The notes under the pieces are model-generated. The model saw only the letters and a program-made list of their open reading frames with translations, made no database searches and was not told the origin of the DNA. 64,000 bases of DNA from an uncultured bacterium. Lineage in GTDB: Bacteria; Patescibacteriota; Minisyncoccia; UBA6257; 2-01-FULL-56-20. A program made the translations under genes and the position numbers. The stretch's first letter is position 1. Every line of letters starts with the position of its first letter. The stretch covers positions 515,552 to 579,551 of the forward strand of contig OY970126.1 of the NCBI GenBank assembly GCA_963705915.1, written 5' to 3'. Below, in pieces: positions 29,187 through 32,418 of the stretch.

Positions 29187-30357
29187 CTACCGCACGGTCG
29201 CACCGAATTCTTTGGCGGTCTCCTGTTCAATACTCTTGTGCAAGACGTCCACCTCGTCGTTCGTAAGCGTGCGATCACTTGAGCGATAGGTTATGCGATA
29301 GGCATAGCTTTTGTTCCCTGCACCAAACTTAGCATCGTTCTCATAGGAATCGATAAGCTCCACTTGTTCAACAAGATCTCCCGCGATATCGCGGACAAGA
29401 TCAAAATAATCGTTCGGGCTGAAGGTTTTCGGGACAATGAATGAGATGTCGCGCACCACGGGCGGATATTTGCTGACTTCCACAAACTTTTGCCCCATAT
29501 GAAGCTGGCGCTTCACGCGTTCATCGTCTGACCATAAGAGGCGAATGTCTGGCAACTCCATACTGATGATGGCAAGCCGTTCGAGGCCGAAACCAAACGC
29601 CCATGCGTTATATCCTTCGACGCCGAATTTTTTGAAAACGCTTTGCTTCGTCATGCCGCCGCCCAAAATTTCAACCCATTGGCCGTTCACTTTCACTTCC
29701 ACCTGAAGCGACGGATCGGTGTATGGGAACGTGTCATCCAAAAACCGATACTCGACATCGGCGCCGAACAATCCTTGTACAATCTCAATCAACGCATTCC
29801 GCAAATCATCGATCGTGAGCGGCATTGTGTCGGCTGGCGTCATGTACCATCCACCAAACTGATGAAAGATGTTCATGTGCTTGCGGTCAATCTCATCTTT
29901 ACGGTAGACCTTGCCGTAGCAGACAACGCCGAGCGGTTCTCGTCGCGCAAGACGTTCTTTTACCTCGGGGAGTTGCGTGTAGTAATACCACATGACCGTG
30001 TCATGCGTGCGAAGAATATTGTTATCATCTATATAATAGGTGTCCGACTTGCTCCGCGCGGGATGGTCGACCGGGAAATCGAAAAGATCAAAACTGATGT
30101 CTGCCGGGACAATTTCGGGAATAATGATGTCGTCGAAATTTTTGAGTGCCGAAACGCTTTTTGCCTTTTCGACGATTTCATGGAGCGGGCTCCCCGGCGT
30201 GCGCGAAAGGTCGGGCATCGCAAGATAGCGTTTGATCCGCTGCGCTTCAGCATCGGTGCGCGTATTAAGCAACGTCAAAATCTTTTTTTGCTCGTCCAAC
30301 GAGACGCGATATTCATGCGATTCCATAGAGAGTATTGTAGCGGTATCGATTGTCATT
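29187..30357 (-). CDS. pheS: Phenylalanine--tRNA ligase, monomeric mitochondrial-like type (alpha catalytic core fused to a C-terminal FDX anticodon-binding domain). The ORF track extends to 30512 but the likely start is MTIDTA at 30357.
   Basis: Class II core with FPYTDPS (PheS motif 2 region) and GFGLERLAI (motif 3). The C-terminal VVRDISFIVP...ELIDSYEND...KSYAYRITYRSSDRTLTNDEV resembles the FDX-ACB domain. An upstream extension would overlap the convergent pyrE. Confidence 0.8.
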
Positions 30358-30422
30358 TTCAAATTTTTGTGATATCCTCTGTGCGCAATGAACTTTGACA
30401 TCATGCAATAGAAGGAGGAACG

Positions 30423-31025
30423 ATGGACATGGATACTAAGCGAGTGCTTGAAATCCTTGAGTACATTGGTGCGCTCAAAGATGTTCACACCGAAACCCAT
30501 TCCAAAAGGCACGTACGACGCTATTTCGACAAGCGAGTGCTTTTCGCGGATACTTTCAACACCGGACGCATATCGACGGCGCTGGCGGATCTTTTTTTAA
30601 ACGATCCGGTCGATGTTGTATGCGGGCCACCGCAAGGCGGGATGATCCTCGCAGGACCTGTATCGGAACGCCTCAGGGAAAAATTTCGCAAGGAGATACC
30701 GGTCATCTCAATAGAAAAGAATGAAGACGGAACGCTCGTCGTATCGCAAGCTTCCCGCGAAGCCTTGACGGGCAAGACCGTTTTGATTGTCGAGGATACC
30801 GTGACGACCGGCGGAAGCGTACGAGAGGTCGTGCGCATTGCAAGAGCTTCCGGCGCAAAGAAAATCCTCGTCGGCGCCATACTCAATCGCGGCGACGTCC
30901 GAGCAAAGCAGCTCGACGCCGATCGCTTCAGATACCTTGCTTCCATGGTTCCAGAAGATTGGCTTCCTGAAAATTGTCCGCTTTGTAAAGCCGGCATTCC
31001 TCTTGAGCCGACACCCGGAAAATAG
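30423..31025 (+). CDS. pyrE: Phosphoribosyltransferase, orotate PRTase-like
   Basis: PRPP-binding motif VLIVEDTVTTGGS. About 200 aa, adjacent to an OMP decarboxylase gene. Confidence 0.65.
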   Translation: MDMDTKRVLEILEYIGALKDVHTETHSKRHVRRYFDKRVLFADTFNTGRISTALADLFLNDPVDVVCGPPQGGMILAGPVSERLREKFRKEIPVISIEKNEDGTLVVSQASREALTGKTVLIVEDTVTTGGSVREVVRIARASGAKKILVGAILNRGDVRAKQLDADRFRYLASMVPEDWLPENCPLCKAGIPLEPTPGK

Positions 31026-31771: not shown

Positions 31772-31863
31772 GTGACCTCCAAATCAAGTATCAAAAAGTA
31801 ATAGAACTTCTCACTTTATATATCATTTTCTCTTATGAGTAAAGAAGCTCTTTTATTATGGTG

Positions 31864-31936
31864 TGCCGACGGGAGGAGTCGAACCTCCGACCTAGCGCTT
31901 ATGAAACGCCCGCTCTAACCGCTGAGCTACGTCGGC
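31864..31936 (-). tRNA. tRNA-Met/Ile2-type (anticodon CAT), CCA not encoded
   Basis: Reverse complement folds as acceptor GCCGACG/CGTCGGC, D-arm GCTC-AGCGGTTA-GAGC, anticodon stem GGCGT/GCGCT with loop TTCATAA, T-arm GGAGG-TTCGACT-CCTCC, discriminator A. Confidence 0.7.
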
Positions 31937-31987
31937 AAATGCAAAATTACTATAGAGCAGATATCGCTTATTTTCAAACAAAAACAA

Positions 31988-32013
31988 TGATGTTGCGGGG
32001 GCAGGACTCGAAC
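31988..32013 (-). repeat. 26-bp tRNA-3'-end-like direct repeat, copy 1 (tgatgttgcgggggcaggactcgaac). Lacks a pairing T-stem partner, so it looks like a fragment.
   Basis: Identical to a 26-mer at 32247..32272. The reverse complement reads GTTCGAGTCCTGCCCCCGCAACATCA, a T-loop plus acceptor-3'-like sequence. Confidence 0.6.
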
Positions 32014-32034
32014 GTCGCTCGAGGACTCGCTCCC

Positions 32035-32106
32035 TCGGAACCCTCGGTTCCGAGCGGTTCGCATCGGAATGCGAACCCTCCAACACGGGGAACCTTGCGG
32101 TTCCCC
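32035..32106. repeat. Three consecutive perfect hairpins built on the GGTTC/GAACC motif (cggaacc-ctc-ggttccg; ggttcgcat-cgg-atgcgaacc; ggggaacc-ttgc-ggttcccc)
   Basis: Read directly from the sequence. Stems of 7 to 9 bp with 3 to 4 nt loops. Located between the two tRNA-like direct repeats. Confidence 0.55.
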
Positions 32107-32142
32107 GACCCCCTCCCTCGTTCTCGTCCTTGCCCAAGAAGT

Positions 32143-32245
32143 TTTTCTTTTTACCCTGAAAGGGTATGCCGGACGCGCGCAGGCGCGGAGGCGTAGGCCG
32201 CTTTCAGTAGAAAGCGAGCCGACCCTTTCAGGGTAAAAAGAAAAA
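32143..32245. repeat. Hairpin-flanked element E (23-bp perfect closing IR ttttctttttaccctgaaagggt/accctttcagggtaaaaagaaaa). Divergent relative of copies A-D.
   Basis: Internal cgcggaggcg... and a hairpin gctttc-agta-gaaagc with the AGTA loop. The hairpin-1 equivalent is degenerate. Confidence 0.45.
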
Positions 32246-32246
32246 C

Positions 32247-32272
32247 TGATGTTGCGGGGGCAGGACTCGAAC
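32247..32272 (-). repeat. 26-bp tRNA-3'-end-like direct repeat, copy 2. Here it is followed upstream by a T-stem partner and a CAT-containing anticodon-like hairpin, so it may be the 3' end of a noncanonical tRNA or tRNA-like RNA spanning roughly 32249..32325.
   Basis: The reverse complement of 32249..32325 has GCAGG-TTCGAGT-CCTGC and GGAGC-CCCATAA-GCTCC. I could not pair a canonical 7-bp acceptor stem. A TATAAT box lies upstream at 32362..32367 on the minus strand. Confidence 0.4.
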
Positions 32273-32418
32273 CTGCTTCGGGAGCTTATGGGGCTCCCCG
32301 GAAAACCTTTCCCAACCCTCCCGCGATGAGTGCTCGATTTCGCGCTTTGCACGTCCTGAGATTATACCGATTTCTATGAGCGATTGTCAAAACAATTCGT
32401 TAGTGACATTATCTAGAA

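Follow-up and report, generated by a model that had tools for sequence, protein, structure and literature searches.

The window, by which we mean the whole 64,000-nucleotide stretch of DNA analysed, carries a 259-bp non-coding cassette directly 3' of an initiator-type tRNA gene. The cassette belongs to a large, apparently undescribed and uncatalogued family in Patescibacteria (CPR), in which each unit has the same order: a tRNA ending in a first repeat copy (A1), a branched hairpin (X), an arm antisense to the tRNA (A'), a multi-hairpin core and a second copy of the tRNA 3' end (A2). We tentatively read these units, with a little less than even confidence and on comparative sequence patterns, as non-autonomous insertion cassettes that carry their own targeting arm and are co-transcribed with the tRNA.

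The locus is flanked by murD and pyrF, and its features are listed in Table 1. The 26-mer TGATGTTGCGGGGGCAGGACTCGAAC is present in exactly two plus-strand copies (31988-32013 and 32247-32272), as the initial annotation had noted; none of 100 shuffles gave a match, and the repeat lengthens to 38 nt at 89% identity. The TTGACA-18-TATAAT promoter is the sole promoter-like site upstream of the tRNA-X-module stretch. It is common to the tRNA, hairpin X and module, with no internal promoter and no canonical terminator between them. A TATAAT box had been reported at 32362-32367; the box is real and its coordinates were one base off (32366->32361). The 233-bp block between the repeats had been described as non-coding and hairpin-dense, and indeed no ORF was found in it, while the minus strand of 31975-32335 folds with -181.8 kcal/mol compared with -137.2 ± 5.8 kcal/mol for shuffled sequences (z = -7.6). 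The three hairpins and 'element E' described in this block were recovered as three perfect 9-bp hairpins (P2, P3 and the optional extra hairpin) and a 26-bp perfect stem, the latter formed by pairing of 32140-32165 with 32222-32247. The canonical elongator-type tRNA-Met(CAU) is a neighbour that lies outside the unit, and the same tRNA follows the array of units at locus L011.

Table 1 Features of the cassette locus (coordinates within the window).
Feature	Position	Strand	Remarks
Sigma-70-type promoter TTGACA-18-TATAAT	32361..32390	-	12/12 consensus; upstream of initiator-type tRNA
Initiator-type tRNA, anticodon CAU, non-canonical	32252..32325 (32325->32252)	-	Conservation and compensatory changes
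Repeat copy A1	32247..32272	-	T-loop to tRNA 3' end plus 5 trailing nt; exact 26-mer
Hairpin X ('element E')	32140..32247	-	26-bp perfect outer stem round two inner hairpins; three-way junction
Antisense arm A' (GGGCAAGGACGAGAAC)	32120..32135	-	Complementary to GTTCGAGTCCTGCCC in tRNA 3' part
Conserved core	32029..32119	-	Junction GGGAGGGGGUC, P2, optional extra hairpin, P3
P2	32086-32107	-	GCAA loop
Optional extra core hairpin	32056-32077	-	UCCG loop
P3	32034-32054	-	GAG loop
Core 3' part GGAGCGAG...GAGCGAC	32014..32033	-	Abuts tRNA 3' copy
Repeat copy A2	31988..32013	-	Second T-loop-to-3'-end copy; exact 26-mer
Promoter-like TTGAAA-17-TATAGT of next gene	31949..31977	-	10/12 consensus; downstream limit of unit
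Elongator-type tRNA-Met(CAU), canonical	31863..31936	-	ARAGORN; Rfam tRNA 70.1 bits

The distal repeat copy forms the 3' end of a real initiator-type tRNA, which is conserved and non-canonical. The T-stem partner and CAU-loop hairpin that had been noted ahead of this copy are seen in the minus-strand sequence, and the failure to fold a canonical acceptor stem fits the results of standard finders: ARAGORN called no tRNA on the distal copy, and the best Rfam match (tRNA-Sec, 32.4 bits) lies below the gathering score of 47. That the copy belongs to a tRNA-like gene is borne out by its retention upstream of murD in 15 related genomes and by compensatory changes. All 21 pairs are paired in 100% of sequences, three of them show compensatory double changes and none shows one-sided changes; the covariation score was reached by 0 of 500 shuffles. 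The acceptor strands (5' CGCGGGA, 3' CCCCGCAA) are invariant, with C1 opposite A72 and A7 opposite a C. A 4-nt loop on a 5-bp stem makes up the D arm; the T arm is normal, and a 6-bp anticodon stem bears the 7-nt loop CCCAUAA (invariant in 15 sequences), with C in place of U at position 33. The mismatch atop the acceptor stem and the 3' end CCCCGCA-A are initiator hallmarks, and the 3' acceptor strand is presumably identical to that of E. coli tRNA-fMet. Three consecutive G:C pairs beside the anticodon loop are absent, the loop-adjacent pairs being C-G, G-C and A-U; a GGG/CCC run occurs at the far end of the 6-bp stem. The initiator-type tRNA used by one Paceibacterota clade escapes standard finders, and such genomes would therefore wrongly seem to lack tRNA-fMet.

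Within the module, arm A' is antisense to the T-loop, the 3' strand of the T-stem and part of the acceptor 3' strand of the tRNA. The window arm is imperfect: one A is bulged, and there is a G.A/A.G tandem mismatch. Its duplex with the tRNA tail has a computed energy of -24.1 kcal/mol. The 5' part of A2 (31999-32013) also pairs with A', closing the module as helix P1. The proximal copy had been recognised as only a fragment: it has no tRNA body, and upstream of it stand the motif GAGCGAC and the conserved core. This motif, as GAGCGAC(G), directly precedes the copy in the window, in L018 and L011 and in most metagenome units. The covariance model R1 scores the window core at 63 bits (E = 7.8e-15), the sole copy in the window. 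A resemblance of the D-arm region of the initiator-type tRNA to the core junction and P2 was not detected by R1 at E <= 10, and we treat it as unproven. The architecture of X, built on unrelated stem sequences, is seen again in L018 and at three places in L011.

At least 120 metagenome stretches contain the core pattern, as do, among 80 murD loci, L006, L011 (twice) and L018, all from related Paceibacterota genomes. Most instances have a same-strand tRNA approximately 30-120 nt upstream of the core, a distance that reaches approximately 260 nt where other units or repeats intervene. Fifteen tRNA classes were verified ahead of units, and tmRNA genes take this place in L102, L154 and L186. Units measure approximately 145-260 bp and form tandem arrays in L011, L107, L134 and L160. 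In 44 of 64 units, 14 nt or more of the 3' end of the unit's own tRNA is copied exactly; family-wide, the copy is identical to approximately nt 59-73 (the discriminator) of the tRNA with sharp edges on both sides, the identity of its upstream flank to tRNA nt 49-58 being 0.25-0.67. Four pairs of P3 carry 7-15 compensatory changes among 33 units, and the core junction sequences are near-invariant across hosts. Read on the tRNA strand, most loops of P2 and P3 are GNRA-like; UNCG loops and tandem G.A pairs are also present, the latter recurrently in P1 (GUGAGAU variants). Family-wide, X hairpins contain 37 G.T versus 9 A.C mismatches when read on the tRNA strand. The same layout is also found with unrelated cores, some of which consist of just two small hairpins. 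Two further ideas were set aside. X does not behave as a plain intrinsic terminator, with a T-run after only 10 of 34 X hairpins and no terminator called in the window. A retro-origin of the copy from mature tRNA was likewise rejected, the CCA status of tRNA and copy agreeing in 47 of 48 units (38 without CCA).

The arm is specific for the tRNA beside which it lies. Pairing of arms with their own tRNA tails averages -20.1 kcal/mol compared with -13.4 kcal/mol for the tails of other units (permutation p < 1e-4), and 620 of 662 arm positions, at a mean arm length of 14 nt, are Watson-Crick paired. In 41 of 44 units, the arm fits the real tRNA better than it fits the downstream copy. The cores of L107 and L162 are 96% identical and their arms are retuned to tRNA-Gly and tRNA-Leu, which makes this pair, as far as sequence comparison goes, a usable case of retargeting. 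A second pair with 99% core identity was considered as recent spread with retargeting and is weak, as both tRNAs are tRNA-Gly isoacceptors whose ends are alike. Under symmetric scoring, the arm/copy helix has 22 G.T and 20 A.C mismatches; this lack of bias gives no sign of selection for the hairpin in its single-stranded state. An apparent G.U bias in P1 (57 G.U versus 9 A.C) was discarded as RNA evidence, being an artefact of G.U-favouring scoring.

A comparison of the initiator-type tRNA locus across relatives reveals both occupied and empty sites. No second copy is present in 9-10 relatives, R1-type units are found in the window, L018, L011 and L092, and a truncated unit is found in L006. 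Cargo-bearing units occur in L011, L014 and L016, where 0.7-1.5 kb of ORF-bearing DNA lies between the tRNA and the arm. In L018, the copy adjoining the ancestral flank (AGCCAAGG...) is the downstream copy. The view that a duplicated tRNA 3' end surrounds an inserted segment was therefore the right general frame, because relatives carry the same tRNA without the insert. Logan contigs, retrieved by exact-protein look-ups for strains, break inside the tRNA region.

These patterns are the basis on which we infer mobility. The cassette would target the 3' end of tRNA and tmRNA genes site-specifically: the nucleic acid would be single-stranded at this stage, and the arm would confer specificity by pairing with the tRNA sequence. 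The element would land directly behind the last ~15 nt of the gene, or be exchanged within them, so that the tRNA stays intact, and the tRNA promoter would then drive transcription of the inserted cassette. An enzyme encoded elsewhere would supply catalysis. Strand exchange might use a folded hairpin as att site, on the model of integron attC or CTX phage, or might alternatively proceed by guide-directed single-strand insertion as in IS200/IS605. Presence and absence among relatives, tandem arrays, unrelated cores in one layout and the sharp edges of the copy all count for insertion. Non-autonomy is favoured by two negative results: no protein family is enriched near approximately 118 units, and an XerD probe found no Xer-like gene in the 64-kb window. 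Several points stand against the cassette. No excised or circular form was seen, nor any empty/filled polymorphism inside one population, nor a transposase or recombinase. The ~14-nt arm would have to be retuned whenever a new target is taken, a step without a demonstrated mechanism and one that a pre-formed hairpin att site would not explain. The mismatches of the arm/copy helix lack a G.T bias. The window unit, moreover, carries no promoter and is simply part of the tRNA transcript, and its arm is imperfect.

Searches for an enzyme or a vehicle yielded neither. Clustering of 1000 neighbouring ORFs gave no family present in more than 6 loci, the top clusters being an HTH protein, GIY-YIG, GNAT and housekeeping genes, and the cargo ORFs have no significant Pfam match. 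No integrase was found in or beside the element, and in loci of up to ~15 kb neither a Y1 transposase nor TnpB turned up close to a unit. Searches of 2.9 million viral contigs, 50,697 phage records and 72,556 plasmids found no copy of the element; hence no vehicle is known, which counts against the cassette. Rfam 15 gave no match at E <= 10 for 31988-32246 and none at E <= 1 for eight loci with typical units, and no paper describing the cassette family was found in the literature.

The main rival, which we consider less likely, is a functional structured RNA acting on its own tRNA, with no selfish insertion. The arm could pair with A1, bracketing X, or with A2 as a decoy, bracketing the core. 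Such an RNA could switch folding or processing, sense free tRNA 3' fragments, or be a trans-splicing 'repair' ribozyme whose layout (antisense, core, replacement 3' end) would swap the tRNA 3' segment. Of the readings given by the initial annotation, the ~340-nt structured RNA with tRNA-like ends comes closest in spirit to what is seen, with one promoter common to the tRNA, X and module; its 5' part, however, is a bona fide tRNA, as the compensatory changes in it indicate. A functional RNA is consistent with the single promoter and missing terminator, the strong tRNA-strand bias of X, the covariation of P3, the copy that matches the tRNA exactly up to its mature 3' end, and an arm that stays complementary to the real tRNA and not to its in-cis partner. 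The GNRA-like and UNCG loops, tandem G.A pairs and nearly invariant core junctions fit it as well as they fit an insertion cassette. However, several unrelated cores share one layout, some with only two small hairpins, which makes a single catalytic or sensing core hard to reconcile. The ORF-bearing DNA between tRNA and arm, the stacking of units in arrays, the majority of relatives, which have the same tRNA and no unit at all, and the absence of any match of the core to known ribozyme or riboswitch models (Rfam 15) also argue against it.

A bolder proposal, which we regard as somewhat improbable, is that the family is a programmable system. A target-rewritten ~14-nt arm would direct a conserved ~100-nt nucleic-acid core to any tRNA or tmRNA 3' end. 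The units would then be either single-strand DNA insertion elements of a new class, guide-directed and bringing no enzyme themselves, or RNAs by which nt 59-73 of the cognate tRNA are exchanged or repaired through strand swap and transesterification.

An attL/attR scar, left by a phage or island that was integrated at the tRNA 3' end by a tyrosine integrase and decayed to 233 bp, is very unlikely and largely refuted. tRNA and tmRNA genes are classic targets of tyrosine integrases and islands are known to form tandem arrays at one tRNA; the direct repeat, which begins in the T-loop and stops shortly beyond the tRNA 3' end, the tmRNA cases and the arrays would all suit such an origin. However, the content is not decayed: the block suggested to be a decayed miniature integrative element is a conserved module with covariation that stands behind many different tRNAs, in at least 120 places, with no integrase or remnant in or near units, a small size (typically 145-230 bp), nothing similar among phages, plasmids and viral contigs, and an antisense arm foreign to integrase att sites. 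A tRNA gene with a tandem partial pseudogene from local duplication, its hairpins being incidental terminators, is refuted and retains almost no probability: the second copy does lack the 5' tRNA body, and these organisms do have tRNA 3' halves duplicated purely in tandem (L127), but the inter-copy segment is not tRNA-derived and matches the conserved core (E = 7.8e-15), the same core stands behind unrelated tRNAs, and an antisense arm is not a product of duplication. The proximal copy sits in a structured module and is no degraded tRNA; a normal tRNA call with repeat-free relatives had been expected of a pseudogene, and while repeat-free relatives do exist, the tRNA is not a normal one.

Known systems resemble the proposed insertion cassette in part. 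Tyrosine-integrase elements at tRNA and tmRNA genes share with it the 3'-end site, the T-loop-to-3'-end repeat, the intact gene and tandem accumulation; unlike them, the units are only 145-260 bp long, integrase-free and absent from phage, plasmid and viral collections, and they have a structured core and an internal target-antisense arm. Integron attC and CTX-phage attP(+) sites likewise have two inverted arms round a variable, sometimes branched loop (here P1 round the core), strand-specific folding and an enzyme in trans, and integrons share the cassette-like arrays beside a fixed site with an occasional small ORF per cassette. By analogy, the A-X-A'-core-A order is what would be expected from one strand exchange between an attC/attP(+)-type hairpin and the tRNA gene. 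In contrast to attC, no IntI or Xer gene is associated with the units, and their arms are copies of the target, retuned per tRNA, as opposed to R and L boxes. GAAC/GTTC (GTTCGA-like) boxes, with a 6/7 match to RYYYAAC / GTTRRRY, are present in units in a loop-proximal and not an outermost position; integron R''/R' core sites at the outer ends and an adjacent intI/attI were not found, nor was any adjacent recombinase gene.

IS200/IS605 elements insert 3' of a fixed tetra- or pentanucleotide target, recognised by pairing to an internal guide of ~4 nt beside a hairpin foot, and their right end resembles the target. Their ORF-less derivatives (PATEs) would be comparable to the units in being non-autonomous, hairpin-rich and strand-specific. 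Having A' placed between X and the core hairpins would be in keeping with this layout, with X at the left, the core hairpins at the right and the arm pairing with the target, and the 15-nt repeat may be either the unit's own end or a duplication; the unit arm is far longer (~14 nt versus ~4 nt) and its target is a tRNA end. Group II introns (EBS/IBS) also carry an internal sequence antisense to the one that immediately precedes the insertion, and engineered trans-splicing group I ribozymes have the order of antisense, structured core and replacement 3' segment. Unlike these introns, the units match no Intron_gpI, group II or ribozyme model (Rfam 15), their core is only ~100 nt, and the tRNA here is complete without splicing. 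The group I introns reported in Patescibacteria tRNAs occupy anticodon-loop position 35/36, a different site from that of the units (PMC13011429). HDV-like theta ribozymes are reported as small ribozymes directly downstream of viral tRNAs, and so resemble the units as small structured RNAs immediately 3' of tRNA genes; the units differ in having no HDV-like match or viral occurrence and in their extra antisense arm and tRNA 3' copy (PMC10879173).

If the insertion cassette reading is right, CPR bacteria, with their tiny genomes and few known mobile elements, harbour a common class of cassettes that lack proteins and recognise tRNA and tmRNA genes via a built-in antisense arm, retuned per target. 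This would be a new coupling of target recognition to insertion, or else a new type of RNA that works on the 3' ends of tRNAs, and in either case a compact natural scaffold whose specificity is held in a ~14-nt arm. The units account for duplicated tRNA 3' ends with hairpin-dense spacers in CPR genomes, and R1 can be used to annotate them there. As a separate observation, the duplication of tRNA 3' halves in L127 is a plain tandem one, with a 65-nt period.

The 26-mer TGATGTTGCGGGGGCAGGACTCGAAC occurs as exactly two copies in the window, a result matched in 0 of 100 shuffles, and when its flanks are included the repeat extends to 38 nt with 89% identity. The block enclosed by the copies contains three perfect hairpins of 9 bp each, together with a perfect inverted repeat of 26 bp whose arms are 56 nt apart. 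On the minus strand the folding energy of this region is -181.8 kcal/mol, below that of shuffled sequences (z = -7.6), and the hairpin loops are GCAA, UCCG and GAG. The repeat and hairpin-dense block proposed in the initial annotation are thus confirmed, and the TATAAT box it had reported is present, one base from where it had been placed.

Judged from its sequence, the distal copy belongs to a real, odd initiator-type tRNA (tRNA-i). The source is a CPR bacterium in which murD and pyrF flank the region; the closest murD loci (~66% identity) are found in Paceibacterota/Parcubacteria-group MAGs, and the 74-nt tRNA-i sequence was found upstream of murD in 15 related genomes. The acceptor strands (5' CGCGGGA, 3' CCCCGCA-A) place C1 opposite A, as in bacterial initiators, and the anticodon CAU lies within the loop CCCAUAA. 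The T arm is normal, while the D arm has a 5-bp stem and a 4-nt loop; A7 faces C. Each of the 21 proposed pairs is formed in all sequences, and the only three stem substitutions are compensatory double changes, giving a covariation score reached by 0 of 500 shuffles. A perfect TTGACA-18-TATAAT promoter lies upstream. ARAGORN made no call for tRNA-i, and the best Rfam match was tRNA-Sec at 32.4 bits, under the threshold of 47. In distant relatives (Nomurabacteria and others), sequences upstream of murD end in ...TCTCCCCCGCAACCA; the part before this ending does not resemble a standard T arm, none of them is called by ARAGORN, and they may represent another aberrant initiator tRNA type.

Coordinates of features in the window and in comparison loci (L-numbers)
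Feature	Location	Strand
26-mer copies	window 31988 and 32247	
Folded region	window 31975-32335	minus
tRNA-i	window 32325->32252	minus
TATAAT box	window 32366->32361	
Core match	window 32029-32120	
tRNA-i 5' part, GGGAGGGUUGGGAAAGGUUUUCC	window 32300-32325	
Core junction and P2, GGGAGGGGGUCGGGGAACC..GGUUCCCC	window 32086-32119	
PheRS	window 29187-30512	minus
Ends of contigs L001 and L002	window ~32300 and ~31890	
...TCTCCCCCGCAACCA-ending sequences	L030 ~3640; L041 ~3648; L046 ~3683; L051 ~3103; L055 ~3635	minus
Native tRNA-i trailer with arm-like sequence	L014 ~3690-3640; L092 oriented ~750-790; flanks of L005/L009/L012/L015	
Core subclass lacking tRNA 3' end	L089; L114; L164/L180/L194; L172; L198; L200	
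Core 5' half with foreign hairpin repeats	L087 449-1000; L147 115-600; L127; L193 downstream of unit	
tRNA-Lys(CUU) with 3'-half copies	L127 1100-1375	minus
Group I intron	L083 476-739	plus

A homologous arrangement follows the same tRNA-i in L018, L011 (twice) and, truncated, L006. In L018 and L011 it comprises a long stem around two hairpins (X), a module that starts with GGGAGGGGGTCGGGGAACCGNNAGGTTCCCCG and finishes with GAGCGAC, and then the tRNA 3' end once more. Scanning metagenome contigs for the core pattern yielded at least 120 stretches, and all sequences examined contain at least 132 instances. Among the matches listed, a canonical tRNA precedes the core by roughly 30-120 nt on the same strand in most instances, and 44 of the 64 tRNA-preceded cases carry an exact copy (at least 14 nt) of their own tRNA 3' end after the module; the spacing between repeats is mostly 145-230 nt. 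At least 15 tRNA classes were verified (initiator Met, elongator Met, Arg, Asn, Pro, Leu, Asp, Glu, Gly, Ile, Val, Tyr, Ser, Lys and Ala), and at three or more loci the unit lies behind a tmRNA gene, with the tmRNA 3' end duplicated. The common layout reads tRNA, hairpin X, 5' arm, junction GGGAAAGGGGUC, core hairpin P2 (GGGGAAAC-GNNA-GUUUCCCC), GUGGCGGAAG, an optional hairpin, core hairpin P3, GGAG, a variable hairpin, GAGCGACG and the tRNA 3' copy. Four pairs of P3 show 7-15 compensatory changes across 33 units. The covariance model of the core (R1) finds a single copy in the window (63 bits, E = 7.8e-15); the window's other three tRNAs are not followed by one. The 5' part of tRNA-i resembles the core junction and P2, a likeness that R1 does not detect at E <= 10 and that may be chance. 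One core subclass has no tRNA 3' end after the core; it carries instead AAAATAAA and a long hairpin containing CCCCGTCAGCTTGCTGCGGGG, with a GGGGAATGAATGCGG-like sequence upstream. In metagenome Ga0078972 the core 5' half (through P2) is joined to tandem repeats of another hairpin, GAAGTCTCTCTTCGTC..GAAGTGAGACTTC, with AT-rich spacers, and in L087 this whole arrangement recurs with a 292-nt period.

The 5' arm reads antisense to the T-loop, the 3' strand of the T-stem and part of the acceptor 3' strand. Pairing of each arm with its own tail averages -20.1 kcal/mol, against -13.4 with the tails of other units (permutation p < 1e-4). Differences between tRNA and copy fall mostly in the T-loop, and in 41 of 44 units the arm follows the real tRNA at those positions; Watson-Crick pairs occupy 620 of 662 positions against the real tRNA (mean 14 nt) and 454 of 516 against the downstream copy (mean 11 nt). 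The window is among the exceptions to this preference: here the copies match throughout their 26 nt, and the arm (GGGCAAGGACGAGAAC) contains both a bulge and a G.A/A.G pair. Two records sharing a contig name in one metagenome, L107 (tRNA-Gly UCC) and L162 (tRNA-Leu GAG), have 96% identical cores and arms retuned to their respective tRNAs. At the level of sequence, the unit is built from modules: a specificity arm that follows the real target, a core that is either conserved or exchangeable, and a repeat of the final ~15 nt of the target. It sits directly behind the target gene.

The copy has sharp edges: identity to the tRNA is 0.25-0.67 over nt 49-58, 0.90-1.00 over nt 59-73, 0.62 at +1 and ~0.4 beyond, where selection of copies by an exact match of at least 10 nt in a 13-nt probe (nt 61-73) inflates the identity block and does not create its edges. 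CCA status agrees between tRNA and copy in 47 of 48 units, which argues against derivation of the copy from mature tRNA. At the tRNA-i locus, R1-type units occur in the window, L018, L011 and metagenome locus L092, and no second copy was found within the sequence available for 9-10 relatives. In L018, the flank directly 3' of the tRNA in unit-free relatives follows the downstream copy. Units of 0.9-1.5 kb with ORFs between tRNA and arm occupy the locus in L011, L014 and L016; these ORFs gave no significant Pfam match. Elsewhere, units form tandem arrays (L107, with a 184-nt period, L134 and L160). A core-independent scan found the last 16 nt copied downstream for 48 of 192 tRNAs in the loci examined, 11 of them without the R1 pattern. 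Several of these keep the same order of parts (tRNA 3' end, X, arm, core, copy of the 3' end) around other cores, namely two small hairpins (L137, L196), a different conserved core (L160, L172, L190) or a divergent relative (L185). The native tRNA-i trailer in many relatives reads A[CG]NCAAGG...AAGACC...GGCC..., then arm-like GACAGGACTCGGAC, followed in L014 by a degenerate ...CCGCAAC; judged from its sequence, this may be an older unit, with a core of another type, that became fixed in the clade. In L127 the 3' half of a tRNA-Lys(CUU), starting at the anticodon stem, is repeated four times in tandem downstream of the gene (65-nt period); lacking arm and core, these copies represent a different kind of tRNA 3' duplication.

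Mismatches in hairpin X, counted on the tRNA strand, comprise 37 G.T and 9 A.C (p = 4e-5), an excess indicating that folding of that strand, as RNA or single-stranded DNA, is selected. The arm/copy helix has no such bias (22 vs 20); a value of 57 vs 9 was rejected as a scoring artefact. In the window, neither a promoter nor a canonical terminator lies between tRNA and module, and a second promoter, for tRNA-Met, follows the copy, so that tRNA-i, X and module look like one transcript.

We tentatively favour a non-autonomous insertion cassette, whose arm would recognise the tRNA 3' end through base-pairing and which would insert directly behind the target gene. This would account for most observations: the unit's presence in some relatives and absence from others, the arrays, the versions with cargo, the use of several cores within one layout, the occurrence behind both tRNA and tmRNA genes, the sharp identity edges and the lack of an enzyme in cis. 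The observed order would arise if a folded single-strand att site (as in integron attC or CTX phage) swapped one strand with the gene, or through an IS200/IS605-type single-strand insertion 3' of a target read by an internal guide. The defining features of neither known system were recognised in these loci, and neither explains the retuning of the arm. The main rival, which we consider less likely, holds that the unit works within the tRNA transcript, acting as a switch between arm:tRNA and arm:copy pairing, a sensor or a ribozyme exchanging 3' segments. Cargo-bearing units, varied cores and arrays fit it poorly, whereas the RNA-like loops, the strand bias of X, the apparent co-transcription and the fidelity of the arm to the real tRNA speak for it. 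By analogy with self-splicing introns, the cassette and functional-RNA readings are not mutually exclusive. The interpretation in the initial annotation is partly supported, its decayed-island and pseudogene readings being effectively excluded.

No Rfam 15 family matches the module and our literature searches found no description of the unit. The feature is real and widespread and, to the extent that these searches reach, undescribed. Viral contigs, phage genomes and plasmids gave no match to the unit, and within 4 kb of the units no protein family stands out as enriched. A XerD sequence used as a probe only had zero matches in the window and matched one gene across all loci examined. An unclassified HTH protein, with Pfam hits to HTH_23/Sigma70_r4 only, recurs near units in six loci. 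The tRNA introns reported from Patescibacteria (PMC13011429) are group I introns at position 35/36. In L083, a group I intron (Rfam 82.7 bits) interrupting an opposite-strand tRNA adjoins a unit. Short-read Logan contigs of the same organism (L001 and L002, with identical murD and pyrF) end inside two tRNA genes, so the region is fragmented in that assembly. The window also encodes a single 441-aa PheRS in which a class II core (tRNA-synt_2d) is joined to a ferredoxin-fold anticodon-binding domain (FDX-ACB), the monomeric, mitochondrial-type architecture as opposed to the bacterial alpha2-beta2 enzyme.
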